Below are positions 2,995-62,938 of a stretch of DNA of 64,000 bases, one piece after another (the stretch's first letter is position 1; each line of letters opens with the position of its first letter). Made by a program: the position numbers and the translations under genes. The notes beneath the pieces were generated by a model. It was given only the letters and a program-made list of their open reading frames with translations, did no database searches and was not told the origin of the DNA. Origin of the DNA: a virus (Duplodnaviria > Caudoviricetes); IMG/VR virus record IMGVR_UViG_2687453420_000002, positions 1 through 64,000 of that record. One strand, written 5' to 3'.

Positions 2995-3201
2995 CTAGTC
3001 TAAGTACCATATATCTTCTACTTTCTTATTTAATTTTCTAGCGACCTCTAAAGCTATTTCTAATCTAGGTCTACTCCTATTACTTTCCCAATTATTATAA
3101 TTTTTAATATCAGTTCCTATTAATTTAGAAAATTCTCCTGGATCCATCATATATTCTCTCATTCTTATTTCTTTTAATCTATTTCGAACCACATACACCA
3201 C
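2995..3201 (-). CDS. XRE-family HTH regulator
   Basis: NRLKEIR...NNWE...P.LE.AL.VA..L...VEDIW. Confidence 0.85.
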   Translation of the reverse strand: MVYVVRNRLKEIRMREYMMDPGEFSKLIGTDIKNYNNWESNRSRPRLEIALEVARKLNKKVEDIWYLD

Positions 3202-3222: not shown

Positions 3223-3247
3223 ATTCTATAAATGGGGTGTAAATCCT
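3223..3247 (-). promoter_or_regulatory. Sigma-H-type promoter of the XRE gene
   Basis: AGGATT-N13-TAGAAT, same spacing as the nine array cassettes. Confidence 0.6.
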
Positions 3248-3723: not shown

Positions 3724-3920
3724 TCTTAGCATAAAATATTTAGATAATTAGGTATATAACTATTACCTATATTTTTACTATACATAAATAGGTAGGGTAA
3801 CTAAATGTCATTAAAGCTATATATAACAATGTTTATACTATATTTAAACATATAACTAAGTTTCAAAGAGCACTCGACTAAAGTACGTAACTTTATAGTA
3901 AATAAAATATTACAAAAAAT

Positions 3921-4025
3921 AAAAAATGGCAACTCCAATTAAGGAACTGCCTTTTTTGTATTTTATTTAGGATGGTAAATAATATCTATACTATTAACCT
4001 TCTATGTAATTAACAATATTCCTTT
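3921..4025 (-). ncRNA. sRNA cassette A (sigma-H promoter, CCAUCC body, terminator)
   Basis: AGGAAT-N13-TAGAAG; body ATTATTTACCATCC; hairpin GGCAGTTCC/GGAGTTGCC plus U-tract. Confidence 0.55.
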
Positions 4026-4085
4026 AAATAATTAAAATTATTACATATCAATATAATAAAAACAAAATATATTACTAAATTATAT

Positions 4086-4200
4086 AAAAAAGAGCTCTAT
4101 TTATTAGAGCTCTTATGAAACAAGGAGGCGTATGATAATTTATATTTAAGTCATGGAATAACCTTATATTAACATTCCACATATGTTGATATATTCCTCC
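4086..4200 (-). ncRNA. sRNA cassette B (anti-SD CGCCUCCUUG)
   Basis: AGGAAT-N13-TGGAAT; hairpin AAGAGCTCTA/TAGAGCTCTT plus U-tract. Confidence 0.6.
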
Positions 4201-4297
4201 TAAATTGTAACAAATAAATTTTGATTGAATATAATATAAATATATCTATAAAAAACTTATTTGAAAATGGCTTTATTTTTTCGTTAACTTCTTCCTT

Positions 4298-4400
4298 AAA
4301 AGACCCTAGATTATTCCAGGGTTTTAAAATTAAAACTAAGTCGTGGGATATGCAAGTATTTTCATTATATATTATTCTACAAATTAATAAAAATCCCTTT
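4298..4400 (-). ncRNA. sRNA cassette C (CAUAUCCCACG)
   Basis: AGGGAT-N13-TAGAAT; hairpin ACCCTGGA/TCTAGGGT plus U-tract. Confidence 0.55.
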
Positions 4401-4476
4401 ACATATAATTATTTTTTTAAATTTGGATATAATAAAATTGAATTTAATTATTACATCTACACTGGAAAAATCCTAT

Positions 4477-4585
4477 AAAAAGAGCCCATGTTATATTCAA
4501 TAAACGGGCTCCTTATCCTATTAACTTGGATGGAAATAATCTTTGCACTAATAAGTCTTCTATAAAAATTTAAATAGTCCTCCTA
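4477..4585 (-). ncRNA. sRNA cassette D (CCAUCC, same seed as A)
   Basis: AGGACT-N13-TAGAAG; body ATTATTTCCATCC; hairpin GAGCCCGT/ATGGGCTC plus U-tract. Confidence 0.55.
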
Positions 4586-4669
4586 AAATATTATAACAAA
4601 TAACTATTAATTGAATATAATATACTATACCTGTTAAGTACAGTCACTAGTTCTGTATAATTTACCTAT

Positions 4670-4779
4670 AAAAAGGCCCTGGATATTATTCCAGGGTTTT
4701 AATATGATCGAGTGTTTATTGATTAAGCATAGTTACGAAGTTAATTTATATCATTCCACATATATTACATAATTCCTTC
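4670..4779 (-). ncRNA. sRNA cassette E
   Basis: AGGAAT-N13-TGGAAT; hairpin CCCTGGA/TCCAGGG plus U-tract. Confidence 0.55.
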
Positions 4780-4857
4780 ATATGATTAAAATCCACATAC
4801 CCTGGATATAATAAAAACAGACCAAAACATAGCACCAATATATAGAAAATTCCATAC

Positions 4858-4963
4858 AAAAAGAACCCTTTTTATTGGGGTTCTTTTTTTGGGAGATATA
4901 CGTTTAGCTTATCGCAAACTATTATATTTAATTAATATTCTACATATGTTAAAAAATTCCTTT
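4858..4963 (-). ncRNA. sRNA cassette F (AUCUCCC)
   Basis: AGGAAT-N13-TAGAAT; hairpin AAGAACCC/GGGTTCTT. Confidence 0.6.
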
Positions 4964-5260
4964 AAAATTAAAAAATGATAGCTATAGCATAAGCTATTAT
5001 TTATCTATATGTAACTATTTTAATAATAACTACCTACTGGAACATTTTTTACTAAATCAACTTTGAAATTTATGTGTTTCTGTACTAAATTTTTATACAA
5101 CTATTATAATAAATGAATATCAATAATACACATGTTATTTTTTAACACGAAAGTTTTTCTCCTTTATACTAGCATTATATACATTCTAAATTAATATATT
5201 TAGAATATAGGTCTTAAAACTAAAGTTACTTAAAATTTAACTATAAAAGGAGGAAAATTA

Positions 5261-6385
5261 ATGAATTTAAAATTTAAAAGTGTGTTTTCTATTTTTATTG
5301 CTATAATGATTGTATTCTTATTAAATTCAATAGCATATGCAGAAGATACCAACGGAGTTTCTTCATATACTCCTATTAGAGGAAAAGTTTTAAAAGTTAT
5401 AAAAGAATATGATGAAATTCAAGGTCAAGGCAAAGAATCTGAAAAACTTAAAGTGCAAAATTTACAAATTGAAATATTAGAAGGAAAATATAGAGGTAAG
5501 AAAGTATCTATAGATAACCACATATCTACTTCCAAACAAAATGGTACATGCTATGCAAATAATGATGAAGTCCTTTTAATCGTGGAACCTGGAGAAAAGG
5601 GTGAAATATCATCTGTAAGTATTTATCAATTCGCAAGGGACAAGTATTTAAAATATTTTTTAATAAGTTTTTGTATAATAATGGTTTTAATTGGAAGATG
5701 GAAAGGAATAAAATCTTTATTAACCTTAGGTATTACTGTATTTTTTATTGTGAATGTATTCTTAAAATATATTTTAAAGGGATATAATCCATTCATGATT
5801 TCTATTTTTGTATGTATATGCATTACTACTGTCACTTTCGTAATAGTAAGTGGCATAAACAGAAAAACCATATCTGTTATATTAGGAACTACTGGTGGGG
5901 TCATGATCGCAGAACTAATAGCTGTCTTTGTAGGTAATTTATGCAAAATAAATGCCATAAGTTCTGAAGAAGCCCAGGTACTTTTATATTCTAATCTAAA
6001 TAATCCATTAAATTTTAAAAATATTTTTTTTGCTACAGTACTTATAGGTGCTTTAGGTGCTGTAATGGATGTAAGTATGTCCATATCTTCTTCTATGAGC
6101 GAAATAAGAGAAGCTAATGGAAATATAAGTACTGCAAAATTAATGAAATCAGGCATGAATATAGGAAGAGATATAATGGGCACAATGTCTAATACTTTAG
6201 TACTTGCCTATGCCAGTGGTGCAACTTTTCTTATTTTAAGTTGTATGGCCAATGGAGTTACTTTATTAGATATGATAAACCAAGATATGATAACATGCGA
6301 AATAATAAAAACCTTATCTGGTAGTATAGGCTTAATATTCACTATACCCTTTACTGTTATTATAAGTGGTATATTAGATAGATAA
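5261..6385 (+). CDS. YibE/F-family membrane protein
   Basis: IGALGAVMDVSMSISS and IGRDIMGTMSNTLVLAY motifs; multiple TM helices. Confidence 0.85.
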   Translation: MNLKFKSVFSIFIAIMIVFLLNSIAYAEDTNGVSSYTPIRGKVLKVIKEYDEIQGQGKESEKLKVQNLQIEILEGKYRGKKVSIDNHISTSKQNGTCYANNDEVLLIVEPGEKGEISSVSIYQFARDKYLKYFLISFCIIMVLIGRWKGIKSLLTLGITVFFIVNVFLKYILKGYNPFMISIFVCICITTVTFVIVSGINRKTISVILGTTGGVMIAELIAVFVGNLCKINAISSEEAQVLLYSNLNNPLNFKNIFFATVLIGALGAVMDVSMSISSSMSEIREANGNISTAKLMKSGMNIGRDIMGTMSNTLVLAYASGATFLILSCMANGVTLLDMINQDMITCEIIKTLSGSIGLIFTIPFTVIISGILDR

Positions 6386-6406
6386 AAATCAAAAACTTAC
6401 TTGAAT

Positions 6407-6440
6407 TACATATTAAATTGTGTGCATAATTTAATATGTA
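6407..6440. repeat. Perfect 13-bp inverted repeat with 8-bp asymmetric spacer
   Basis: TACATATTAAATT-GTGTGCAT-AATTTAATATGTA. Confidence 0.8.
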
Positions 6441-6653
6441 TTGGTTAATCTTGTTATAAAAATATGTTATACATAAGGTAAAAGGGCTGCACCCATTTTT
6501 GAGCACAGCCTCTTATTTTAAGTTTTATTTATCAAAATATGTAATATATTTTCATGAACTTAAGCAGAAATTTCTCCATTAATTTATTAATTGTAGAATC
6601 ATTTCCTTTTTAAGCTTATACAAATTTAATTATCTATATAATTACTCCTAAAT

Positions 6654-7046
6654 TTAACAAGAAACCCCATCTACCTCATCATTATTTTTTTCAATAGTAA
6701 TTATAAGTTTATGGGGAAGGCAAGCTGCTGTTTCCCCAGGTTTTCTCAATACTCCTGATTTTATACAAATCTTATTACGACAATTTGCTTCTATAAATCT
6801 AATAGATCCCTTATCTACTTCTATAATATTATACCCTCTATAGCTACCTTCACTATAGTTAATTCTGAATTGTCTTTTTTCTTTTACTTTAGATAAATCA
6901 ATTTTTTCTATAATTTTACCATCCTGCTTTATTACAGCTACAGCCTTTTCAGATTTTGAAAAGAATTTAAAGAAAATTACACTTACTATACTTAAAACCA
7001 ATAATGTAGTAACTATATACATTACTATTTTATCACCTTTTTTCAT
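6654..7046 (-). CDS. NusG domain II-containing (Lin0431-like) exported protein
   Basis: MKKGD..TM; N.IEV..G.IRF.EANC.NKIC...G......ACLPHKLII. Confidence 0.85.
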   Translation of the reverse strand: MKKGDKIVMYIVTTLLVLSIVSVIFFKFFSKSEKAVAVIKQDGKIIEKIDLSKVKEKRQFRINYSEGSYRGYNIIEVDKGSIRFIEANCRNKICIKSGVLRKPGETAACLPHKLIITIEKNNDEVDGVSC

Positions 7047-7113
7047 TAGCCCCCTCCTATTAAACTATAAATATAATCAATATATTACATCAATCCATAT
7101 AAAAAATCCATAC

Positions 7114-7219
7114 AAAAAAGAACCCTATTTATTAGGGTTCTTTTCTTAAGCAAGGAGGTTGTCTAAATTATTGGTAAGCCGTTATATTTAATATTCTATA
7201 AATGTTAAAAAATTCCTTT
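7114..7219 (-). ncRNA. sRNA cassette G (anti-SD ACCUCCUUGC)
   Basis: AGGAAT-N13-TAGAAT; hairpin AAGAACCCTA/TAGGGTTCTT; close paralogue of cassette I. Confidence 0.6.
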
Positions 7220-7621
7220 AAATAATAAACATAAAAACTCTAAAGGTTAATCCCTTAGAGTCTTTTTATCTATATGTTTAAGATTGTTTTTCTTCTTCAT
7301 CTAATACTTTTGCTGCATTGTTATCATATAGCTTTAGAAGTGATTTTGTAAATATTTTTGAAGTATTCTTACCCATTATTACCTTTGCTTTTATATTTTT
7401 TTTATTCGTGATTACCTCCTATAAATAAATTTAAAATTTATTACATTAATATAATCATTTATTTTTCTTTAATATTTATTAATTACTGATATTTTATTGT
7501 TTTAAATAACTATTAATTATAAAATAGTTATTTTAGTATTAGTAATCTTCTGCACTGTTATTTGTGGTAAATGGCATGGTAAATATTCCTATGTCTAATT
7601 CTGTTTTTGCCATTTCTTCCT

Positions 7622-7849
7622 TCAAATGACCCATGCTGTAAGACCACAATTGCTACACTCTCTAAACGCTAGTTTGCCTTTGTGATCATAAAATGAATGG
7701 AAATCATGACCTAAATAATCGCAACATTTATGATTTTCTCCTCGCCCAACCGTAGCACCACATTTTGGGCAAGCCTCTGCTGCATAAGTACTAGATACAT
7801 TCATCCCAAGTATCAATGCTGTTAAGAGACCAATTACAATTTTTTTCAT
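7622..7849 (-). CDS. Small secreted Cys/His-rich peptide
   Basis: Signal peptide MKKIVIGLLTALILG..TYA; CxxC, HxCCDYxGHD, CxxC; paralogue of 13041..13289. Confidence 0.8.
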   Translation of the reverse strand: MKKIVIGLLTALILGMNVSSTYAAEACPKCGATVGRGENHKCCDYLGHDFHSFYDHKGKLAFRECSNCGLTAWVI

Positions 7850-8052
7850 TTAGTCATCCCCCTTTAAATTATTTTATCTGTTAAATTATTTTAACTTAAC
7901 AGATTCTTATTATATAATTTCTACATTTATACAATTTCCCCTTTATAATTTTTCCCAAAAATTCAGACATTTCACATCATTTTTCAATGAAATAATACAA
8001 AACGTGGTATTCCCAAGAGAAAGTACCTTTCAAATTAATATATTATATATTT
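7790..8052. repeat. ~260-bp direct repeat of 13230..13495 (signal-peptide exon, upstream region, terminator, endolysin 3' tip)
   Basis: Near-identical text, e.g. ccccctttaaattattttatctgttaaat...cccaaaaattcagacatt. Confidence 0.85.
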
Positions 8053-8130
8053 CTGGTTGATTAACTTTTCTACATCTGGATATAATAAAAATAGACCAAA
8101 ACATAGCACCAATATATGGAAAAATCATGC

Positions 8131-8239
8131 AAAAAGAACCCTAATAAATAGGGTTCTTTTGTTTAAATAAGGAGTTTTATGTGTAACATATAGAAAACTA
8201 TTATATTTTATAATTCTACACATGTAAAAAAATTCCTTC
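8131..8239 (-). ncRNA. sRNA cassette H (anti-SD AACUCCUUAU)
   Basis: AGGAAT-N13-TAGAAT with overlapping TTTACA-N17-TATAAT; AAGAACCCTA hairpin. Confidence 0.6.
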
Positions 8240-8416
8240 ACATTTGATTTAATTTATTTTTCCTGGATATAATAAAAATAAGCTAAAATAAAGCACCAAT
8301 ATAAAAACTCCACAATAAAAAAGGTATTCCCATAAATGAATAGCACCCTGTCAAGTAGACACATTAAAAAATAAAAAATGTTATCTCCAATCATCAAAAA
8401 GTGATTGGGGATATTT

Positions 8417-9337
8417 TTATACTACCTTTTTTTGTAAGTAATTTCTATATTCTAAAGGGGTCATACAGTTTAAACGTTTTTGATAACGACTAGAATTATA
8501 ATAATCTATATATTCTTCAACTGCTTCTCTTAATTCTTCATAAGTGTTAAAAGTCTTTAAATAATACATTTCTGACTTTAGCATACCCCAAAAAGCTTTC
8601 ATTGGCCCATTATCAATACATCTTGAAACTCTAGACATACTTTGTGTCATTCCCGCATCGTCCAGTTTCTTTTTAAACATCCTGGATGTATACTGGAATC
8701 CTCTATCACTATGAAATATAGGTTTAGATTCAGGATATTGACCATGAGCTATATCAAATGTTTCAAATACAAGTGCATTATTATTTGAATGTCCGAGCAC
8801 AAAAGCTACAATACTTTTATCGCTAAGATCTAAGATTGCACTAAGATAAGCTTTATTGCTTGCACCATATTTAAATTCAGTTACATCAGTTAACCATTTT
8901 TCCCCGAATTTATTTGTTGTGAATTCTCTACCTAAAACATTTTCGGCAGTTATTTCTGGTATTGATTTTATATAAGTCCGCTTTTTCTTCCTGCATACAG
9001 ATTTCAAACCAAATATTTGAATTAATCTATAAATACGTTTTCCATTCACGTGAAAATTATTTTCTCTATTAAGCTTTATTGTCATCTGACGATAATCTAA
9101 AATACCATTCCTTTCTTCATATGCATCTTTGATTAATGGTATTAAAGACTTATTAAATTGCTCATTTGCCCCTTCTTTTCTATTAAGCCATTTATAATAA
9201 GCAGAACGTGATATCTCAGCAATTCTGCATAATTCTGAAATGGTACAATTTTTATTGTTATGTATTTCTTGAATTGCCAAATAAATTGTTTCATTTTGAA
9301 CTTGGCTTAATATCGCCCCCTTTCTATCTCTTCCCAT
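8417..9337 (-). pseudogene. IS3 OrfB DDE transposase, probably inactive
   Basis: WLTDVTE, FHSDRGFQY, DNGPMKAFWG (usual catalytic E replaced by K). Confidence 0.8.
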
Positions 9338-9988
9338 TTTTTAAGAGAATATTTTCTAATTCCACTCTTCGTTTTTCTGCCTTTAAAAGTTTGTTTTCCA
9401 CACGAAGTCTTTCAATTTCGGACATTTCATTCTCTGACTTTTTACAACCTCTTTTATCAATAAGCCCTTCAATTCCTTTTGATTCATATTTTTTAAGCCA
9501 TGTATAAACCTGTTGATAAGATACTTTATACTTAATTGCAGTTTCCGTATAATTATTTTCATGTTCTATGCAATATTTAACAATTTCTACTCGTTCTATA
9601 TATGTAGTTTTACGCCTTTTAGTCATGATACTATACCCTCCTGTTGTAGAAGATTTTAATTTATCAGACTATTATACTTCATAATCCAGCTTTGGAGTTG
9701 AGTACAACTTCTGATTTTATATTTTTTACATATATCTAGCTGAGAACCCTTACCATTTAAGTAATCCAAAACTGCTGCTTGTTTCAACTCAGAAGAGTAA
9801 GCATAATTTCGGTTGATTGTTTTTAATCCGTCGACTCCTAATGAATCATATCTAGCAATCCAATTTAAAACAGACCGAGGAGTTACTTCTATTTCTCTTG
9901 CAACTTGATGAGCAGATTTTCCATTTTCTTTTACATCAAGAACGCACTGATAAATAATTTCAAAAGGTGTTTTAGCTTTTCTTCCCAT
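9324..9988 (-). pseudogene. IS3 OrfA (HTH repeats) split by a frameshift near 9660
   Basis: ORFs 9656..9988 and 9324..9626 are consecutive HTH repeats of one OrfA. Confidence 0.75.
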
Positions 9989-10224
9989 AAAAAATATGCC
10001 CTCCTTATATCAAACAAGTTTTTATTATTTTACTTGTCTACCCATAAGGGAGCATATCAAAAGGGAGTACCTTTAAAATTAATATCTTATATACTTTTTA
10101 TTGATTAATTTTTTCTACACATGGATATAATAAAAACGCCCCAAACACTACACCAACATGTGTAAAAATCTGTATGTAAAAAGAGTCTTAAATAAATGAA
10201 ATCTCTATTTTATTTATTAATATT

Positions 10225-11547
10225 TTAGATTTGACTTATATTTACTATTTCAATTATCCAGTTAAGCCAACTTTTTATTGTTTGAGCTCTTCGTTTATAC
10301 ATTTTAGCAGTATTTATATTTTTAACTTTATTTTTTTTCATTAATGTTACAATACAATTTATGCTTGGCATTTCTACATTATTTAAATATAATCTCATGA
10401 CTTCATTAAATACTTTATGAGATAATATTAATTTAAATATTTCTAAATATTTTTCAGTACTCCTATTATTTAAAATCTTTCTACCTTTTTCAGATAGCGA
10501 AATAGTTCCCAATCTAAATTGTCTATCCGCTAATCCAAGATAAGCACATGCATTTGAATAATAATGAGCTTGTCTATTAACAACCCCGATTTCTATACTT
10601 ATCTGTTCTTTGCTAATGTAATCTAAATCAGTATAAAGCCTATTTACTATGTACATTATGTTCTCAAATGTATCAGCTTGAGGAAATGGAATGTCATTAG
10701 GTTCATCAACTATTTTAACTGTGCCCAACATCTTTTTTATATCCTCAAAAGTTATATAAAAATCATCAATCATAAATCTTCTAACTTTTTTTAACTTTAA
10801 AGAATTATAACATTTTTCATTTTCTACTTCATAAATATAGAAGCTAAAAATATTATTAGAATATGTTAAAAAACACGGAATAACCTCTTTACTAACTCTT
10901 TCTTTTATTAACCTATATGGATAATATAATTGTCTTATTATAAAATCTGTAAAAACATTATTTTTTGCTTCCAATAAGAGTATTTTATTTCTACTTTCAA
11001 AAGCCCCATCTATTTCACATTGTGCTTTTGAAACATTTATAATATGTTTTTTATTGTTTGAATCACTTATTTCAAAATTAAATTCTCCTGAACTCATTCT
11101 TCCATTAAATGTTGGATATATTTCATTATCCTCTAAAATTATATTAAACATTTTTGACGCATAAGCACAGTTTATAGAATTTGCTTCTGAATAAATATTT
11201 TTATAGTCAATTCCTTCTATCCATTCTGGAAAAGAAAGTCTTTCAATCTGAACATTTGAATTTTCAAAGGATTTATACACCTCAAAATTTCCAATTATAT
11301 AACTTCCCCGTGTTATAGGTAAAATAGATAAATTATTTTCTACAAAAATACTAGGCAAACTATCTCTATAATCAAATTTTGTCATTAATCGTGGTTCATG
11401 ATATTTTTTGATTTGATTAGCTTGAATTATAAAATATCCTTCTCTTTTTACTGCGGTTAAAATTTGGAGCTCATCAAATATTGAACTCCAAAATTTATCT
11501 ATTTTTCGTGTTTTATTGTCATTACCTTTTTTCTTTTCATTCCCCAT
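10225..11547 (-). CDS. Putative restriction endonuclease (PD-(D/E)XK fold, C-terminal winged-helix-like region)
   Basis: EIDGAFE..LLLEAK..IRQLYYPY motif; 13 bp downstream of the MTase. Confidence 0.6.
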   Translation of the reverse strand: MGNEKKKGNDNKTRKIDKFWSSIFDELQILTAVKREGYFIIQANQIKKYHEPRLMTKFDYRDSLPSIFVENNLSILPITRGSYIIGNFEVYKSFENSNVQIERLSFPEWIEGIDYKNIYSEANSINCAYASKMFNIILEDNEIYPTFNGRMSSGEFNFEISDSNNKKHIINVSKAQCEIDGAFESRNKILLLEAKNNVFTDFIIRQLYYPYRLIKERVSKEVIPCFLTYSNNIFSFYIYEVENEKCYNSLKLKKVRRFMIDDFYITFEDIKKMLGTVKIVDEPNDIPFPQADTFENIMYIVNRLYTDLDYISKEQISIEIGVVNRQAHYYSNACAYLGLADRQFRLGTISLSEKGRKILNNRSTEKYLEIFKLILSHKVFNEVMRLYLNNVEMPSINCIVTLMKKNKVKNINTAKMYKRRAQTIKSWLNWIIEIVNISQI

Positions 11548-11560
11548 TTAATCTTTCCTC

Positions 11561-12394
11561 TTATATCTCATAATTTCTTATTAATACTTCTTCTACTTCT
11601 CCTCTTTTATTAGAATTGCTATTTATAGACCTATTCGCATTAACAACAACAATCTTATAATCGGAATAAAGATTTCTAATAAAACTTGTATTACTATTAG
11701 ATAAAAGAAACTTTACTCCTTTTTTATCTAATTTATCACACAAATTTTTTAATCTTATTTGTTCTTTCCTATTAAAACCATTAGCAGTATATCCCGTAAA
11801 ATTAGAACTATTACTAATTGGGTCATATGGTGGATCAAAATAAACAAACGAATTTTTCCCTATTCGCTTTAATGATTCTGAATAATCACCACACTTAATT
11901 TCAATATTATTTTCATTTAGATACTTGTTTACTGCTCTTAAAACAGTCTCATTTAATATATTAGGATTTTTATATCTACCAAACGGTGTATTAAAATATC
12001 CTGATGAATTCACTCTATAAAGTCCATTATAGCAAGTTTTATTTAAATATAAAAATCTACTAGCTTTTTTCACATTACTCCAATTTTTATATTCTTCTTC
12101 TCTATCAATAGCTCTAATTTCATAATAATAACCTTCTGTTATTTGATGCTTAGATAAGTCTACTAATAATTCTTCCAAATTATCTTTAATAACATTGTAA
12201 ACATTAATTAATTCTTCATTCAAATCGTTAATAACAGCTTTTTTAGGTTGCATATGAAAAAGAACTGCTCCTCCACCAATAAATGGCTCATAATATTTAT
12301 AGGTTCCTTTTGGTATATATTTTTTTATCTCATCAAGTAATTGTCTTTTTCCACCGACCCACTTTAATACTGGTTGGACTAGCATACTTCTCAC
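11561..12394 (-). CDS. Dam-like (D12 class) N6-adenine DNA methyltransferase
   Basis: LKWVGGKRQL, YYEPFIGGGAV, FLYLNKTCYNGLYRVN, FDPPY. Confidence 0.92.
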   Translation of the reverse strand: MRSMLVQPVLKWVGGKRQLLDEIKKYIPKGTYKYYEPFIGGGAVLFHMQPKKAVINDLNEELINVYNVIKDNLEELLVDLSKHQITEGYYYEIRAIDREEEYKNWSNVKKASRFLYLNKTCYNGLYRVNSSGYFNTPFGRYKNPNILNETVLRAVNKYLNENNIEIKCGDYSESLKRIGKNSFVYFDPPYDPISNSSNFTGYTANGFNRKEQIRLKNLCDKLDKKGVKFLLSNSNTSFIRNLYSDYKIVVVNANRSINSNSNKRGEVEEVLIRNYEI

Positions 12395-12432
12395 ATAATC
12401 ACCTTCTCTGATTAAATATATTATTTAAAATA

Positions 12433-12473
12433 ATATTATCCTTAAATTTATAACAAGTCAAGAACATTAGTTC
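12433..12473 (-). promoter_or_regulatory. Sigma-A promoter with abutting LexA/DinR box
   Basis: TTGACT-N17-TAATAT; perfect GAAC-ATTA-GTTC at 12462-12473. Confidence 0.65.
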
Positions 12474-12829
12474 AAATTATACACATATAATCCTGAATTA
12501 TTATTTTAAATGATATCTTTTACGTACTTAATTTCATTATTTTATAATCTTACTATCATTGCAATTAATTATTATAGCATAAAATCAATATTGTAAATAG
12601 TATAAAATATAACAATTAATTATAAAAAAAATATTTATATACAATTACTTAAGGATTATTTTATAAATATAACAGAATAGAACTAAGCCAAAAACAACTT
12701 TAACACATTTTTGATGTAAAATAAAAAGCTTTAAATATTAACTTTCTAAATTTTTTTAAGGATTAAAATTAATATACCTGGATATAATAAAAATGATCCA
12801 ATACTACGCTAACCTATATATAAATCCAC

Positions 12830-12941
12830 AAAAAAAGAACCCTATTTATTGGGGTTCTTTTTGCTTAAGCAAGGAGGTCTATAATTAACCTATTGGGAAG
12901 CCATTATATTTAATATTCTATAAATGTTAAATAATTCCTTT
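12830..12941 (-). ncRNA. sRNA cassette I (anti-SD GACCUCCUUGC)
   Basis: AGGAAT-N13-TAGAAT with overlapping TTAACA-N16-TATAAT; AAGAACCC hairpin. Confidence 0.6.
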
Positions 12942-13040: not shown

Positions 13041-13289
13041 TTATCTAGGCGGTCCTACCCATGGTTTTGTTTTTGCATCACAACGATTGCACTCTTTCCA
13101 TAAAGTAGTTCCACCAGGTTCAAATCTAGAATATGCCTGCCAATCATGACCTATATAATCACAACATGAATGCTTTTGTCCTGGCATAACCCTAGTATCA
13201 CATACATTGCAAATAAATGCTGCATGAGCAGTAGACACATTTACTCCAATTATCAATGCTGTTAAAAGACCAATTGCAATTTTTTTCAT
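13041..13289 (-). CDS. Small secreted Cys/His-rich peptide
   Basis: Signal peptide ending AHA; CNVC, HSCCDYIGHD, CNRC. Confidence 0.8.
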   Translation of the reverse strand: MKKIAIGLLTALIIGVNVSTAHAAFICNVCDTRVMPGQKHSCCDYIGHDWQAYSRFEPGGTTLWKECNRCDAKTKPWVGPPR

Positions 13290-13478: not shown

Positions 13479-14252
13479 TTAATATCTTATATATTTAGCA
13501 TAAACATAACCTCCATGTGGTGGATAATAAATGTGTATCCAATCTCCCTCTTTTCTATATAATTGTACTTTTGCCCCATTAGGTAAAGCCCCTAATATTT
13601 TAGCGCTTGTAGATTTCTTTTCCCTAACATTTACACCACTTGGTGTATTTATTGTACCTGTTTTACCATCTAAATTAATCCAACTACTATTATTTGTAGA
13701 TGGTTGACTTGGTGTAGGTGTTACATTTGAAGATACCCCTAACACACCATTTACTATTGCTTTGGCAATTCCATTCATTCCATATTTATTAAGTATAGCT
13801 ACATCTCCAGAACTATCTATAAAACATACTTCTATATAAATTGTTTTGGCTTTAGTTCTTTTAGTTAGTGCTAAAGGTTGGTCTTTAATTCCTCTGTTTC
13901 TAAATCCTAAATTATTTAACTGTTTTAATACTCTATCTGCTTCTACTAAATATTTACCACTATAAGTATATACCTCTGATCCATAACCACCTACTGTAGT
14001 ATTAAAATGTATACAAATATTTAAATCTGCATTTACTGAATTACATAAAGCTACTTGTTTATTTAAACTTTCTTGCAATGTTGATGCATAATCTAATCTA
14101 CATATATTGGTTCTATGTCCTCTACCTCTTAATTCCTTATCTATTTCTCCTACTAATTGCCTTGTTAATACTTCTTCTTTTAATCCATTTATTCCTCTAG
14201 TTCCTACATCTCCACCACTTAATGTGTGTCCTGGATTTAAATTAAATAACAT
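13479..14252 (-). CDS. Endolysin: Amidase_3 plus SH3b
   Basis: PGH...E, IHFN, IYIEVCFIDS; C-terminal VNVRE...G.W SH3. Confidence 0.92.
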   Translation of the reverse strand: MLFNLNPGHTLSGGDVGTRGINGLKEEVLTRQLVGEIDKELRGRGHRTNICRLDYASTLQESLNKQVALCNSVNADLNICIHFNTTVGGYGSEVYTYSGKYLVEADRVLKQLNNLGFRNRGIKDQPLALTKRTKAKTIYIEVCFIDSSGDVAILNKYGMNGIAKAIVNGVLGVSSNVTPTPSQPSTNNSSWINLDGKTGTINTPSGVNVREKKSTSAKILGALPNGAKVQLYRKEGDWIHIYYPPHGGYVYAKYIRY

Positions 14253-49261: not shown

Positions 49262-50257
49262 CTACATTACCTCTTTTAATGCTTTAAGTTCTTTTATAAA
49301 ATCATCAATTTCGTTAGCATTTAAGACTAAATTAGTTGTACCAGTAATGTTCTTTATAGAAAAACTATTTTCTTGAACTCTATATTCCATTACCTTGCCT
49401 CTTAAAACTAAAGGCTGTAATATCTTATTTGGTTTTGAAGCTTCTTTTATGCCTTTATTATTTTCTTTATTTGAACTATTTCTAGTTTCAGCAGATTTTA
49501 TATTATTCAATTTATTTTTAATACCATATCTTCTTAAATAACTATTTATGGTGCTTTCTGCTAAACCATATTTTCTACTTATTGCTACTATAGCTTCTTT
49601 CCCGATTCCAAGCATTTTAGCTTCTTTCATAAGCTGTTCCTTAGTTATCTTAGGCTCTTTTGTGAACATCTCATTTTCCCCCTCATATTTATTTTTAATG
49701 GTATTAGGTATCTTTTTGAGAATTCTACTTATATAACTTTGTTTTAACCCTATTTCTTCTCCTATCTGTTTTTGAGTTTTATTATTAAAATAGAACTCTT
49801 TAATAATTTTCTTATCTCTTTCATTTAAATTTTCTATTATTGCAGCTATTTCTTTGCACGTTACATTAAAAATACTTCTATCTTCATAATTTGTTTTATC
49901 TGATATTAGATCTATTAAACTTAAATTTTCATTATCTTGTTTTTGATTCAATATAGGTTTATCTAAACTATCTACATCTAAATGCTTTTCTTCTTTTCTG
50001 TTAAATATTCTTAATTCATTATTTACTACAGCTGCTAAGTATGTCATGAATAAAATATTTTTATCAGCATTATAAGCTGTGAATGCTTTAGTCATACCTA
50101 AAAAAGCTACTTGAAATAAATCTTCTTGTTCGAATTTACGTTTCCATGACTGTATCAACTTATATAAGAATTTTTCAAACTTAAAATAAACTTCTTCTAA
50201 ACTCATTAATTTCAAGCCTTCATCTTTGGTGAGAATTAATTTTTTCTCAGCCACCAT
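49262..50257 (-). CDS. Phage sigma-70 factor of sporulation type, with extra C-terminal domain
   Basis: EDLFQVAFLG..KA...Y...F.TY; TQKQIG..IG..QSYISR. Confidence 0.8.
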   Translation of the reverse strand: MVAEKKLILTKDEGLKLMSLEEVYFKFEKFLYKLIQSWKRKFEQEDLFQVAFLGMTKAFTAYNADKNILFMTYLAAVVNNELRIFNRKEEKHLDVDSLDKPILNQKQDNENLSLIDLISDKTNYEDRSIFNVTCKEIAAIIENLNERDKKIIKEFYFNNKTQKQIGEEIGLKQSYISRILKKIPNTIKNKYEGENEMFTKEPKITKEQLMKEAKMLGIGKEAIVAISRKYGLAESTINSYLRRYGIKNKLNNIKSAETRNSSNKENNKGIKEASKPNKILQPLVLRGKVMEYRVQENSFSIKNITGTTNLVLNANEIDDFIKELKALKEVM

Positions 50258-57986: not shown

Positions 57987-58238
57987 ATGAAGCATAAAAT
58001 AAATGTCGAAGAATATAGAAATAAAAATTTTATAAGTCAGAATAAACTTGCTAAAAAAATTAATATTAGCCAAAGTTATCTTTCTTCTGTAGAAAGAGAA
58101 ATAAAAAGTCCTACATTGAGAATGTTGTATCGTATTGCAGAAGAATTAGATGTTTGCCCTCGATTGCTAATTAAATGTACAATAGAATGTAGTGAATGTA
58201 AAAAACAATACAAATGTATTTGTGAGGGGGAAGACTAA
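57987..58238 (+). CDS. XRE HTH protein with Cys-rich tail
   Basis: SQ..LA....ISQSYLS..E...SPTL. Confidence 0.85.
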   Translation: MKHKINVEEYRNKNFISQNKLAKKINISQSYLSSVEREIKSPTLRMLYRIAEELDVCPRLLIKCTIECSECKKQYKCICEGED

Positions 58239-59857
58239 TGAAGGCAGGAATTTACAGCAGAAAATCAATGTTCACAGGTAAAGGTGACTCTGTAGAAAAT
58301 CAAGTCCAAATGTGTAAAGATTATGGAAACAGATTAAATGTAGATGAATATTTAATATATGAGGATGAAGGGTATTCAGGAGGTAATATTAATAGGCCTA
58401 AATTTCAAGAGTTATTACAAGATGTTAAAAAGAAAAAGTTTGACGTGCTTATATGTTATAGATTAGACCGTATAAGTAGAAATGTAGCAGACTTCTCTTC
58501 TACTCTTGAACTACTTCAAGACAATAATATAAGTTTTGTAAGCATAAAAGAACAGTTTGATACTTCTACACCGATGGGTAAAGCTATGGTTTATATAGCT
58601 TCTGTTTTTGCACAGTTAGAACGTGAAACCATTGCTGAACGTGTAAGAGATAATATGTTAGAACTCGCTAAATCTGGAAGATGGTTAGGTGGTCAAACTC
58701 CTTTAGGATTTGAATCTGAAAAAATATCTTATTTTGATGCAGAAATGAAAGAAAGAACTATGTATAAACTTTCTCCTGAACCTAAAGAACTAGAATTAGT
58801 TAAATTAATTTATAATAAATACTTAGAAACTGGATCTATACACCTAACATTAAAATATTTATTATCTAATAATATAAAAGGTAAAAATGGTGGAGAATTT
58901 GCATCCATGTCTATAAATGATATATTAAGGAATCCTGTATATGCTAAATCTAATGAAATGGTACTTAATTATCTTGAAGATAAAGGCATGAATATATGTG
59001 GTACCGCTAATGGAAATGGTATCTTAATATATAACAAAAGAAACTCTAAGTATAAGAAAAAAAGTGTAAATGAGTGGATAGCTGCAGTTAGTAAACACAA
59101 AGGAATTATACCTGCTAATACATGGCTAGAAGTTCAAAAAACTCTAGATAAAAATTCTAAAAAAGATACTCCAAGACAAGGAACATCTAAAAAGGCATTA
59201 TTATCTGGAGTTTTAAAATGCAGTAGATGCGGTGCTCCTATGCGAGTTACTTATGGCAGGAAAAGAAAAGATGGCACTTCCATATATTATTATACATGTA
59301 CTATGAAAGCTCATAGTGGCAAAACTAGGTGTGATAATCCTAATGTACGCGGGGACTATTTAGAAAAAAACATTATTACAGAATTAAAAAACTTAAATTC
59401 TGATGTAGTCATTAAAGGGCTTGAAGAACATAAAAAACAACTAGCTGCAACAACAGAAAATTCAATTATAAAAAATATTTCTAAAGAAATAGAAGAAAAA
59501 AAGAAAGAAATGGATTCTTTGATTAATAAACTTTCTAAAATAGAAAGTGATATAGCATCTGAATTTGTATTATCTAAAGTAGATTCTTTAGGAAAAGAAA
59601 TTAAAGAATTGGAAGTTAATTTATTAAAAAGAACCGATAAGAAAAAAGAAAACTGTGATATTGAACTTAATATTGAAATAGTGTTGCAAGCAATAAAAGA
59701 ATTTAATGATTTTTTCAATAGTGTTGAGAGTTTTAAAGATGATGAATTAACTATACAAAGGAAAAGATATCTTCTTGAAAGAGCTGTAGATGAAATTAGA
59801 ATAGATGGAGAAACTAATAGAATAGATATTGATTTATGGAGGGCTAAAAAAAAATAG
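58238..59857 (+). CDS. Large serine recombinase (integrase)
   Basis: YSRKS, DEGYSG...RP, LDRISRN, recombinase domain, LLSG.L.C..CG Zn ribbon, coiled coil. Confidence 0.95.
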   Translation: MKAGIYSRKSMFTGKGDSVENQVQMCKDYGNRLNVDEYLIYEDEGYSGGNINRPKFQELLQDVKKKKFDVLICYRLDRISRNVADFSSTLELLQDNNISFVSIKEQFDTSTPMGKAMVYIASVFAQLERETIAERVRDNMLELAKSGRWLGGQTPLGFESEKISYFDAEMKERTMYKLSPEPKELELVKLIYNKYLETGSIHLTLKYLLSNNIKGKNGGEFASMSINDILRNPVYAKSNEMVLNYLEDKGMNICGTANGNGILIYNKRNSKYKKKSVNEWIAAVSKHKGIIPANTWLEVQKTLDKNSKKDTPRQGTSKKALLSGVLKCSRCGAPMRVTYGRKRKDGTSIYYYTCTMKAHSGKTRCDNPNVRGDYLEKNIITELKNLNSDVVIKGLEEHKKQLAATTENSIIKNISKEIEEKKKEMDSLINKLSKIESDIASEFVLSKVDSLGKEIKELEVNLLKRTDKKKENCDIELNIEIVLQAIKEFNDFFNSVESFKDDELTIQRKRYLLERAVDEIRIDGETNRIDIDLWRAKKK

Positions 59858-60553: not shown

Positions 60554-62938
60554 CTAATTTAATGGTTTAGGTAATTTAGTTATAAATTTAGCATAACCTT
60601 TTTCATATTTTATTAGATTCAAGCTATGAAATTGTTTTAAGTTTAAAAGATCCTCAAGTTCATAAGGATTCATTTCTTCCCTAAGTTCTTCAAAATTCTT
60701 TTTATCCGCTCCTTGTAACAACATATAAGAAGCTCCACTGGCTTTAATTTCATTCTTGAGTTGTGGAATAAGTTGATTCATATAGTGAGCTGATATAATG
60801 ATCTTAGTTCCAAATTTTCTTAATTGAGATAATACTGAACAAATAACATTTTCTGCAGTAGGTGCCTGATATAATTCATCATAAAACACATTACATCTAG
60901 AAGGTTTTTCATGAAGTGCTCCTCTTAACTTTGTAGCCAATACTATTTTAGAAGTAAAAAAAGTAACAAGTACGTTTTTGACCATTTGATTATTAAATGA
61001 ATCCTCTGGCATCTTAATAAGAATTACCTTGCCTTGATCCATAGCTTCAACAAAATCTATATTATTGCTACAACTCATATTAAACATATATTTAAGGTAT
61101 ATATTTTCTTGAATAAGATTTACTCTATCTAAAATTCCATCTATCTTACTTTCTTTTGTCCCTACTATTTCTCTGCTTATTACTTCTTTTGTCTTTTTAT
61201 CTTTTTCTTCTTTAATATCATCCAATTCCTTTAATGTAGTTATCATATCAGAAAAGTAATTTTCACCATCTTCACTCAATTTATTTATATGGTTGATATA
61301 ATAATCTCTTTTTTTAAAGTCCTGTAGACACTTTATAACATCACCTATAGAAGTATCATCATGAATATAGACAAGATTGGCTGCTGCGCTTAAATACCTT
61401 CGCATTTTACTTGTTAAAGGTAATCCATCAGTATTTATAGCATCTATAAAAGACATTGTCTGCTCTGCTTTCATATTAGCCATTTTAAACATTGTAAATT
61501 CATCTTCACCTTCTGATTTAACTTCATTAAACCCTAGCCCTTGAAAACATTCTTTCTTAGATAAATCCAATTCTATTACATCTTCTTTTCTTACACTTCT
61601 TTTTACTGTATTAGCTAATTCACAGTTTTTAATATAATCTAAAATTATTACAGATTCTCTTTTATCATTTGCATTTTTACACATATTTGCAATAAAAGTT
61701 GTTTTCCCTCCACCCTGTGGACTTAATAAAAGCAATGCTAAATTACCAAAATTATATTCATCTCTCATGTATGCTTTGTATTCTTTACCTTTATAATTTG
61801 AAGGTCCTAAATAAACATATCCCTTTTGTAATTCTTCAGGAATAGGATTTTCAAGTACATCTACCTTTGTATTAATCTTAAATCTTTGTAGTAACTCTCT
61901 TCCTGGAATCTGCATAAAATTATTACATTCTAAAGTACTCATTCTATTAATATCAACCTTTTTAAACTTATAATCATAAGGATCTATCTTTGATTTGCTA
62001 TTTACTTTTTTATATTGTAGCGAGTTATCTTGACCTAAATTTTTATAAGATTCTAACACTGCAAAAGCATTGTTTTGTTGCCTTAATTTATCTTTACTTA
62101 TACTAGAAACTAATAATTGTGTATCTAGCACTACAGCATTTTCTTTTCTTCTTGTTATAGTTGAAAGATTAGTTAATTTATCTATAGATGTAATCGCAAT
62201 TTCCGAATGTGTTCTAGGTGTCCCATCTCCAACAAAGTCATTGAACACATCAAAAACTAAATCTATGAATTTTATTGCTCCTATACCTATATATTTAAGA
62301 ATTACAAAGAAGTCTAATTTTTCTTTATCTATTGGAAAACCCGCTTGTATTTTCTTCATAGTTTCCTTATAGTTGCCCTTCCACTTGCTTTGATTAACAG
62401 GAATAAAATTATACAAAATATCTATTTTATCTTCTTCTTCTATTATATCTATTACATTTAATATGTTATTTAAAGGGTCATTAGTTTTTTTGTTAACCTT
62501 TAAACTTAAAGCATCTTCTTTATCATAATATAATTGGTATTTTAAAGATTTATTAAATTCTTTTTCATCCATTGGTATAGTATCAACTTCTTTTACAGTT
62601 ATTCTTTTCCATGTTTCTGTGCACTTTTCTATAAATAAGTTTTTATATAATTTAGGTACTACCATATAAAAAGTACAATCTTCTTTAGTAATGCTAATTT
62701 GAAATAAAACCTTTGCAGGCAATTTATATACAACTTTAAAACCTTTATTTTTCACTTCTTTCATTATTCTCTGATATGGTATCCTATACATATTCGCTAT
62801 TGTTTTAGCAATAAGTTCAGTATCATAATTACGATTACTTGTATCTGGTGTAATATGCAATACTGAATATTTGGGTTTTACTATTTCAAACCAATCACTC
62901 ATTTTATAAGTTTTTTCCTTTTTAAAAAAATCAAACAT
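60554..62938 (-). CDS. VirB4/HerA-FtsK-like ATPase
   Basis: Walker A SPQGGGKTT, Walker B VFYDE, RKFG..I.SAH. Confidence 0.75.
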   Translation of the reverse strand: MFDFFKKEKTYKMSDWFEIVKPKYSVLHITPDTSNRNYDTELIAKTIANMYRIPYQRIMKEVKNKGFKVVYKLPAKVLFQISITKEDCTFYMVVPKLYKNLFIEKCTETWKRITVKEVDTIPMDEKEFNKSLKYQLYYDKEDALSLKVNKKTNDPLNNILNVIDIIEEEDKIDILYNFIPVNQSKWKGNYKETMKKIQAGFPIDKEKLDFFVILKYIGIGAIKFIDLVFDVFNDFVGDGTPRTHSEIAITSIDKLTNLSTITRRKENAVVLDTQLLVSSISKDKLRQQNNAFAVLESYKNLGQDNSLQYKKVNSKSKIDPYDYKFKKVDINRMSTLECNNFMQIPGRELLQRFKINTKVDVLENPIPEELQKGYVYLGPSNYKGKEYKAYMRDEYNFGNLALLLLSPQGGGKTTFIANMCKNANDKRESVIILDYIKNCELANTVKRSVRKEDVIELDLSKKECFQGLGFNEVKSEGEDEFTMFKMANMKAEQTMSFIDAINTDGLPLTSKMRRYLSAAANLVYIHDDTSIGDVIKCLQDFKKRDYYINHINKLSEDGENYFSDMITTLKELDDIKEEKDKKTKEVISREIVGTKESKIDGILDRVNLIQENIYLKYMFNMSCSNNIDFVEAMDQGKVILIKMPEDSFNNQMVKNVLVTFFTSKIVLATKLRGALHEKPSRCNVFYDELYQAPTAENVICSVLSQLRKFGTKIIISAHYMNQLIPQLKNEIKASGASYMLLQGADKKNFEELREEMNPYELEDLLNLKQFHSLNLIKYEKGYAKFITKLPKPLN

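Follow-up and report, generated by a model that had tools for sequence, protein, structure and literature searches.

The question raised by the DNA analyzed here, positions 1 to 64,000 of the IMG/VR virus record IMGVR_UViG_2687453420_000002 (this whole stretch of 64,000 nucleotides is referred to below as the window), is what is made from nine short units, A to I, that lie on the minus strand of a temperate Clostridium prophage and consist each of a promoter-like motif, a short body and a terminator. Our answer, the chances of which we put at about even, is that the nine units are stand-alone small-RNA genes, i.e., "RNA morons", in the cargo of the phage, their transcription being deduced from the sequence. 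They would probably represent an unannotated family of prophage small-RNA genes, the function of which we infer.

The first piece of evidence is the motif itself. The pattern AGGRMT-N13-TRGAAK has nine exact matches in the window, all of them on the minus strand and spanning positions 3999 to 12939, when dinucleotide shuffles gave a mean of 0.39 and a largest value of 2 (none of 100 shuffles reached nine). The whole 99-kb record to which the window belongs has 11 matches, all on the reverse strand; reading the motif backwards as a control gave no match at all. A looser version, AGGA-N17-GAAT, was near chance, with 10 matches versus a mean of 4.25 (2 of 100 shuffles reached 10). In all nine units the motif is followed by a 3' hairpin with a run of T, and the minimum free energy of the whole predicted RNA was between -11 and -20 kcal/mol. 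A stricter terminator scan flagged three of the nine only (A, B and E); units F to I appear, reading the sequence by eye, to have been missed because their loops are above the 8-nucleotide (nt) limit of that scan. If transcripts are assumed to begin 6 nt past the -10 element, the bodies measure 35–53 nt up to the hairpin and the predicted RNAs 70–82 nt, and no usable open reading frame (ORF) was found when the stretch after each motif was read on the minus strand. The first-pass annotation of this DNA had described nine minus-strand units of one layout, with promoters of invariant spacing, short bodies free of ORFs and intrinsic terminators, six of them within about 1 kb, and each of these points held when it was measured.

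The six packed units, A to F, occupy 1041 bp (3921–4961). Unit A (3921..4023, minus strand like all the others) has its sigma-H-type promoter at 3999–4023, a body with CATCC and a terminator hairpin at about 3921–3957; it has homologues in two related loci (L011 and L015), where the stem of the terminator shows compensatory changes. It is followed by unit B (4086..4198; promoter 4174–4198, body with CCTCC, terminator 4090–4114), unit C (4298..4398; promoter 4374–4398, body with ATCCC, terminator 4303–4322), unit D (4477..4581; promoter 4557–4581, body with CATCC, terminator about 4479–4514), unit E (4670..4777; promoter 4753–4777, terminator 4677–4696, the body lacking a C/U core) and unit F (4858..4961; promoter 4937–4961, body with CTCCC, terminator about 4858–4888 and bidirectional). 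Farther apart are unit G (7114..7217; promoter 7193–7217, body with CCTCC, terminator about 7114–7146), unit H (8131..8237; promoter 8213–8237, body with CTCCT, terminator 8132–8160) and unit I (12830..12939; promoter 12915–12939, body with CCTCC, terminator about 12832–12862). The positions under which the units had first been listed (3921, 4086, etc.) are their 3' ends. Units F, G, H and I are homologous repeats and not independent inventions, and the promoters of F and G have second copies in the same record, at 65170–65194 and 67426–67450, respectively.

The units recur in other proviruses. Scanning viral contigs with the F/G/I-type promoter we recovered 23 loci with 45 strict motifs which, together with the window's own record, provided 56 units and 45 distinct transcripts. 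The bodies in this first set fall into the families GI (19 distinct), E (6 distinct versions), H (4), A (3), F (3) and "6" (4); the last is not found in the window, and the window units B, C and D were typed into none of the six. Each array has its own combination of these families (F-E-GI, GI-E-A and F-E-GI-6 among others), the different families keeping the same promoter and a terminator. In all 12 loci of this set that have both, the units are downstream of the endolysin gene. However, the set was retrieved with a pattern that contains the promoter, so that the invariance of the promoter in it is there by construction, and for this reason a second sample was drawn by homology to the endolysin protein alone, which unlike the first is not circular for the promoter. 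This way, we obtained 73 new loci, in 59 of which the gene is followed by 600 nt of sequence or more. Downstream, on the strand of the lysin gene, 29 of the 59 had one or more strict motifs, and 26 of these 29 also had a terminator. Over the 221 kb of downstream sequence there were 47 motifs on the lysin strand versus 0 on the opposite one, and just 3 in the 354 kb upstream, counting both strands. The first unit begins 39–116 nt after the endolysin gene in 16 of the 29 loci. That the cassettes recur and are reshuffled in related proviruses is therefore supported.

In this same sample, many provirus records stop only a few bases away from the end of the endolysin gene (L193, L197, L199, L200, L211, L212, L231, L241, L261 and L264, all from IMG/VR), and in 14 of the 73 loci less than 600 nt follow the gene. 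Provirus callers therefore remove precisely the part in which the cassettes lie.

What lies behind the units bears on whether they are genes on their own or signals for other genes. After 79 distinct units we found another unit in 18 cases, no ORF within 600 nt in 23, an ORF at 151–600 nt in 25 and an ORF within 150 nt in 9, while the remaining 4 had no T-run. Hence for 41 of the 79 there is either a further unit or no ORF in the next 600 nt, and the description of the units as stand-alone, ORF-less cassettes of promoter plus terminator was supported. The units could also be transcriptional punctuation, i.e., sigma-H-timed promoters with a leader terminator (attenuator) before moron genes, together with extra terminators that would insulate the end of the late operon, in which case the short RNAs would be by-products. 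It is true that they flank the cargo modules (the Dam/DUF6997 genes, the small Cys-rich secreted proteins and the NusG_II and YibE/F genes), that a tenth sigma-H-like site, AGGATT-N13-TAGAAT (3223..3247, minus strand), is found directly 5' of an XRE-type helix-turn-helix (HTH) gene (2995–3201), and that antitermination control can leave behind a short terminated phage RNA as a by-product (PMC7547250). In addition, the gene with a NusG_II domain starts 68 nt after unit G (at 7046) with no clear promoter between, and the ORFs found within 150 nt of nine units and at 151–600 nt of 25 would be available for such control. However, in the tandem array of six units there is nothing between them to express, more than half of the 79 have no gene to serve in the sense just described, the body families are conserved and enriched in a C/U motif, and the units come behind the lysis genes instead of preceding the late genes. 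We consider punctuation an unlikely explanation. Most units would be stand-alone small-RNA genes and a minority, such as G, could double as leaders.

Which sigma factor reads the promoters can be approached by comparison with host genes. In Bacillus subtilis, spo0A and spoVS are both controlled by SigH (sigma-H). Upstream of spo0A, two related host genomes have AGGAAT-N13-TCGAAT, that is, the same -35 hexamer and the same spacing as in the units. The pattern AGGAWT-N13-TRGAAT occurs 22 and 24 times in these two genomes versus 7 and 4 times for the control read backwards, and the genes behind the sites outside phages in one of them include spoVS, hfq, mraZ, dapB, an EF-G-like gene and ybjQ. The SigH consensus has been given as AGGA and GAAT with spacers of 17–18 nt, with spo0A among the genes under SigH control (PMC12456013). 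All nine sites can be written AGG(A/G)-N17-GAA(T/G), so that they have both the elements and the spacing of this consensus, and the identification of AGGA-N17-GAAT as a sigma-H consensus in the first-pass annotation agrees with that source and with the spo0A and spoVS promoters of the related genomes. One of the host sites (L044, G024:2482456-2483730) is located 55 nt before the start of hfq; the RNA chaperone Hfq may be co-induced with RNAs of this type, to judge from that promoter.

Another possibility is that the promoters are not read by host sigma-H at all, and the phage itself provides a candidate. A sigma-70-family protein of 331 aa is encoded at 49262–50257 (minus strand), beside the DnaB helicase gene, with regions 2 and 4 and a C-terminal extension containing a further HTH-like match; it is closest to the SigB/F/G and SigE/K models, although far below their cut-offs. 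Of the 23 unit-bearing records only 2 have a full-length close homologue, and 4 of the 10 complete unit-bearing proviruses gave no match whatever, which makes this protein an unlikely driver of the units. The vegetative sigma-A is the other candidate, either through a sequence TTAACA-16/17-TATAAn that overlaps the sigma-H-like motif or with TAGAAT as the -10, and a promoter scan gave 11-of-12 matches to sigma-A at units H and I. Yet only 9 of 40 distinct promoter segments have the final T that a TATAAT would require, the GG of AGGAAT would have no role in a sigma-A promoter, and the host genes spo0A and spoVS share hexamers and spacing with the units. Taken together, we find it improbable that either of these factors is the one responsible. 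Because of the likeness to spo0A and spoVS, the patchy presence of the phage sigma factor and the poor conservation of the last T of TATAAT, host sigma-H is the best candidate for reading the promoters of the units, and a dependence on sigH is what we infer for them.

The bodies have a composition of their own. The consensus fold of the 19 GI-type sequences contains only the terminator, in which two pairs show compensatory changes, and leaves the body unpaired; of the conserved scaffold that had been claimed, promoter and terminator are there, but no conserved structure of the body. In the lysin-chosen sample the bodies are poor in G (10%, with 17% C). The C/U pentamers pointed out in the first-pass annotation, a list that was picked after the fact, are found in eight of the nine bodies of the window, 7–23 nt before the hairpin, and unit E has none. 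Shuffling the bodies 2000 times gave a mean of 0.54 of 9 and a maximum of 4, and only 3.8% of 52-nt minus-strand segments contain one of the pentamers, so that the C/U-rich core described for eight bodies is well above expectation. In the lysin-chosen sample 11 of 29 distinct bodies have them versus a shuffle mean of 2.2 and a maximum of 7, and further bodies contain related stretches outside the list. The complementary GA-rich pentamers were found in none of the nine bodies of the window and in one of the 29. The enrichment therefore holds in both collections, but the core is not a property of all units, since the E-type and "6"-type families are without it. A search of Rfam gave no family at gathering score, the 12 weak matches (E 0.7–4.8 in a search up to E 5) being all far below thresholds. 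The opposite reading of the core, in which its GGAGG complement would be a Shine-Dalgarno sequence on the plus strand, was rejected after inspection of the sequence, as there is no start codon at a usable distance.

A second component, absent from the first-pass annotation, became apparent past the terminators. Most F/G/H/I-type units are followed by a conserved "box" that corresponds to a sigma-A-type promoter on the plus strand, with a -35 TGATTA and a -10 TGGATATAAT conserved around a variable spacer, and that aims back into the terminator of the unit. This terminator is preceded by an A-run and followed by a T-run, and is for this reason bidirectional. The partner promoter was found in 28 of 54 distinct units, 41–52 nt past the T-run, versus 1.9% of random segments, and its distribution follows the body type: 24 of 33 units of the GI, F and H types have it and none of 11 of the E, A and "6" types. 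The predicted partner RNA is about 65–75 nt long, with an unstructured CA-rich body the core of which is kept in 26 distinct versions. In the window, the partner of F (4784..4893, plus strand, ends approximate) has the -35 TGATTA and a -10 TATAAT at 4807–4812 and a predicted CA-rich RNA of about 70 nt ending in the F terminator; that of H (8057..8160, plus) has TTGATT-18-TATAAT at 8057–8086 and a predicted RNA at 8093–8160 ending in the H terminator; and that of I (12759..12866, plus, ends approximate) has a -10 TATAAT at 12783–12788 and a predicted RNA ending in the I terminator. The convergent promoter of units E and C is of another kind, (G/A)TAACA-17-TATAAT, which is ATAACA-17-TATAAT at 4593–4621 for E (4593..4700, plus, into the E terminator) and GTAACA-17-TATAAT at 4207–4235 for C (4207..4326, plus, into the C terminator), the ends of both being approximate. 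Each such cassette would thus be formed by two convergent small transcription units, with RNAs complementary over the shared terminator.

This arrangement could be read the other way round, with the conserved plus-strand sigma-A transcript as the functional RNA and the sigma-H promoters serving to silence it at transition phase, by convergent transcription or as 3'-end antisense, so that the minus-strand bodies would be mostly spacer. The fixed offset of the convergent promoter, the bidirectional terminators and the CA-rich core kept across so many versions would all be expected in that case, and in the lysin-chosen sample 22 of 36 partner promoters face a strict sigma-H motif. Nevertheless, the E-, A- and "6"-type units have no partner to silence, 9 of 34 partner-type promoters have no unit facing them, and the minus-strand bodies are no less conserved than those of the partners and hold the enriched C/U motif. 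We regard this alternative as quite unlikely.

Two convergent transcripts that overlap at their 3' ends in a prophage are also reminiscent of type I toxin-antitoxin pairs, made of a toxin mRNA and an antisense RNA, and hydrophobic short ORFs can indeed be read over the box past the terminator. The longest ORFs over the box, however, are in frames 0, 1 and 2 in 7, 7 and 8 cassettes, respectively, and in 6 of 28 cassettes no such ORF reaches 12 aa. Nothing resembles a Shine-Dalgarno except the G-run of the terminator, and inside neither of the two predicted RNAs is there a consistent ORF. The length of a TA repeat varies among copies (by eye), which may account for the shifts of frame. The reading as a toxin or small peptide therefore fails the test that defines it, a conserved frame, and we consider it very improbable.

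Taking the units as small-RNA genes, they would work as follows. The host sigma-H-type promoter would fire the unit at the transition to stationary phase or the onset of sporulation, producing an RNA of 70–82 nt whose 5' part is unstructured and poor in G and which closes with a Rho-independent terminator. In most families a C/U-rich stretch of the 5' part would pair with the Shine-Dalgarno regions of mRNAs and block their translation, as LhrC-type RNAs do. In most of the F/G/H/I-type units a further RNA, this one CA-rich, would come from the convergent sigma-A-type promoter and stop at the bidirectional terminator that both share. With some 30 nt of complementarity at the 3' ends, the two RNAs might antagonize each other, one belonging to growth phase and the other to transition phase.

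We have looked for the mRNAs that such RNAs might pair with. The host search covered 2201 start regions from 2.8 of the 3.85 Mb of one related genome. In it, positions 21–38 of the predicted unit H RNA have a perfect complementarity of 18 nt to the start region of a gene coding for an AraC-family protein of 325 aa, spanning from -10 to +7 and thus including Shine-Dalgarno, spacer and start codon. Only 2 of 400 dinucleotide shuffles reached 18 nt, i.e., about 0.005 for this unit and about 0.04 over the nine units. The likeness is confined to those 18 nt. The gene precedes two ABC-exporter genes in an ordinary chromosomal context and has no close orthologue in 30 relatives (44% identity at best); the genome that carries it holds no H-type unit, and for its own resident units the best antisense match was of 12 nt, at chance level. 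We take the pairing of H with this gene as a marginal lead and not as a finding. With the 18-base seed of unit I and up to three mismatches there were five matches in two host genomes (1 in G024 and 4 in G025) versus four for the control read backwards; one is the DNA of the unit itself, two are found in G025 only and one, with three mismatches, is common to both genomes. Against the start regions of the phage, units A and B were slightly past the range of 15 shuffles, with pairings that are weak and unconvincing.

Several results weigh against our reading of the units as small-RNA genes. The duplex energies with the 149 start regions of the phage were inside the range of the 15 shuffles for seven of the nine units, and none paired with the spo0A leader better than shuffles did (z from -2.0 to +0.7). 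The eight units other than H had perfect antisense matches of only 11–13 nt in the 2201 host start regions, each equalled by at least 194 of 400 shuffles. The pairing check that had been called for against host and phage start regions has thus given a marginal 18-nt match for H and nothing beyond chance for the other eight of the nine. Neutral spacer DNA, too, would be AT-rich and unstructured like the bodies, and two families, E and "6", lack the C/U core. At the level of the promoter, the sigma-A-like TTAACA-16/17-TATAAn of units F to I overlaps both the sigma-H-like motif and the body. As to conservation, besides the circularity of the first set, the strict motif was absent from 30 of the 59 lysin-related loci, and much of the conservation may come from recent common descent. 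Finally, the nine of 79 units that are within 150 nt of a downstream ORF are possible leaders.

Going further, the phages of the C. botulinum/sporogenes group might carry a recombining library of two-promoter RNA cassettes, in each of which a sigma-H-timed RNA with a variable antisense guide would be opposed, over the common terminator, to a sigma-A-timed one. Each would be a growth-phase toggle, changing the translation of host regulators or rival elements at the commitment to sporulation, with H and the AraC-family gene as the first pair of guide and target. This extension is speculative, and we consider it unlikely. If the RNAs are real, prophages would be timing regulatory RNAs by the host sigma factor for entry into sporulation, and a direct, testable link between lysogeny and the decision to sporulate would follow in a group with toxin-forming clostridia among its members. 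Compact and modular, the cassettes are found in about half of the sampled related proviruses, and would in that case be an RNA family missed by annotation and by Rfam. The convergence of sigma-H and sigma-A promoters across one terminator is an unusual layout and possibly a natural growth-phase switch.

As to the element that carries the units, its gene content and its nearest records identify it as a temperate prophage of the C. botulinum/sporogenes type, and the first-pass annotation was correct in calling it a prophage. The gene order on the minus strand goes from the replication genes and the sigma-70-family gene through terminase, head and tail genes to XhlA and an endolysin with Amidase_3 and SH3 domains (13479–14252). 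After the endolysin comes a cargo stretch, with two paralogous small Cys-rich secreted proteins, a Dam methylase together with a DUF6996/6997/7226 protein, an IS3-family insertion, and a NusG_II-domain gene convergent with a YibE/F gene; at its 3' end are the XRE-type HTH gene, small membrane proteins and a TrwB-like protein. The nine units are confined to this stretch, with the endolysin gene on one side and the last operon on the other. The public records that come nearest are plasmid-type prophages of C. botulinum and C. sporogenes. Searching with the array gave partial matches in eight C. botulinum/sporogenes records of a plasmid collection, with the strict motif absent from L001, the one plasmid record examined of those eight; it gave no match in a phage collection. 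Among genomes, there are matches in Clostridium sp. FAM 1755, Clostridium sp. Marseille-Q2269 and C. botulinum ATCC 25763.

The record from which the window is taken, of 99,125 bases, consists of a tandem of two related prophages with an offset of 60,233 bases. The F-to-G module, with the YibE/F and NusG_II genes (4797–7229 in the window and 65032–67463 in the record), is 98.97% identical over 2436 bases between the two, when their structural genes are only 82–94% identical. This suggests a recent exchange of the F-to-G cargo module between the tandem prophages.

Other features of the element can be described briefly. The two small paralogous proteins (7622–7849 and 13041–13289, minus strand; 75 and 82 aa) are Cys-rich with a start like that of a signal peptide, belong to no Pfam family, and have homologues adjoining units in at least eight related loci. 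The Dam-type methylase (MethyltransfD12) and the DUF6996/DUF6997/DUF7226 protein that follows it (10225–12394, minus) are possibly a restriction-modification or defence pair. The IS3-family element (8417–9988) is inserted beside them and is flanked by two orphan partner-type promoters on the plus strand that have no sigma-H unit facing them, one at 10126 and the other at 8244..8413, with TTGATT-18-TATAAT at 8244–8273 and a plus-strand terminator at 8382–8413; it looks as if the IS3 insertion or recombination had split these cassettes. On the 3' side of unit A, the non-coding stretch 3746–3967 has 75–80% identity to stretches in seven C. botulinum plasmid records, mostly without an annotated gene, and contains TTGAAA-18-TATAGT on the minus strand. 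The last operon (1–2410 and 60554–62938, minus) codes for small membrane proteins and for a large protein with a weak match to TrwB, a type IV coupling protein, a gene set that is odd for a siphovirus-like prophage and that is kept beside the units in related loci. There are also two recombinases, a tyrosine recombinase in the middle of the genome (40828–41823, minus) and a large serine recombinase (58238–59857, plus) beside a CI-like repressor.

How do the units compare with what is already known? The first-pass annotation had stated that no system of this form is described, which is too strong, since multi-copy small RNAs with C/U-rich anti-Shine-Dalgarno regions are known, such as the LhrC family. 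In Listeria monocytogenes this family comprises sibling RNAs in several copies (LhrC1-5, Rli22 and Rli33-1) whose single-stranded CU-rich regions pair with AG-rich Shine-Dalgarno regions (PMC5880928). We consider LhrC the closest model, and by analogy the units would work most like the small RNAs of Firmicutes with CU-rich seeds. In both cases several genes for short RNAs are present, and each of them has a regulated promoter of its own, a Rho-independent terminator and no conserved ORF, and is under an alternative, stress- or transition-type regulator. The single-stranded C/U-rich region is likewise common to both, being found in eight of the nine bodies of the window, although not in the E and "6" types. 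The differences are equally clear. There is no homology in sequence or structure to LhrC, and the units match no Rfam family at threshold. LhrC belongs to the core genome and the units are prophage cargo; the bodies of the units form at least six unrelated families, whereas the LhrC siblings are nearly identical; the promoters of the units are of the sigma-H type and those of LhrC depend on LisR or sigma-B. Many units have a convergent partner transcript, and their pairing to Shine-Dalgarno regions is putative. Within the portion of the literature that was accessible, sigma-H-driven arrays of small RNAs in Clostridium prophages were not found described.

Type I toxin-antitoxin modules are common in clostridial prophages. 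Such modules, made of a toxic protein that is small and hydrophobic and an antitoxin that is an antisense RNA, are abundant on bacterial plasmids and chromosomes (PMC6563280). They resemble the cassettes in the prophage site and in the two convergent short units whose shared terminator gives complementary 3' ends, predicted here for 28 of 54 units, but the cassettes have no toxin ORF (no conserved frame, start codon or Shine-Dalgarno) and one promoter of each pair is of the sigma-H type.

The 6S RNA that arises from PR'-tR' of phage lambda was long taken as a by-product. In lambdoid phages, a promoter followed immediately by a terminator yields a short RNA, as with PR'-tR' and the StxS of Shiga-toxin phages, and this RNA may be a by-product of antitermination control or itself regulatory (PMC7547250). 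The layout is the same in our units. However, PR'-tR' is a single cassette before the late genes, under the Q antiterminator, and the units are multiple, mostly have no gene to read into and come after the lysis genes (downstream of the endolysin in 12 of 12 loci, with 47 motifs downstream versus 3 upstream in the lysin-chosen sample).

The host sigma-H promoters of spo0A and spoVS, finally, have the same -35 and -10 elements with the same spacing, but drive protein genes of the host, whereas the units are ORF-less stretches of 70–82 nt on a phage. What is new in the system presented here, compared with all of these, is that the units belong to prophage cargo, that their promoters are of the sigma-H type, that bodies unrelated to each other are put together in modular arrays, and that there is a convergent sigma-A partner.

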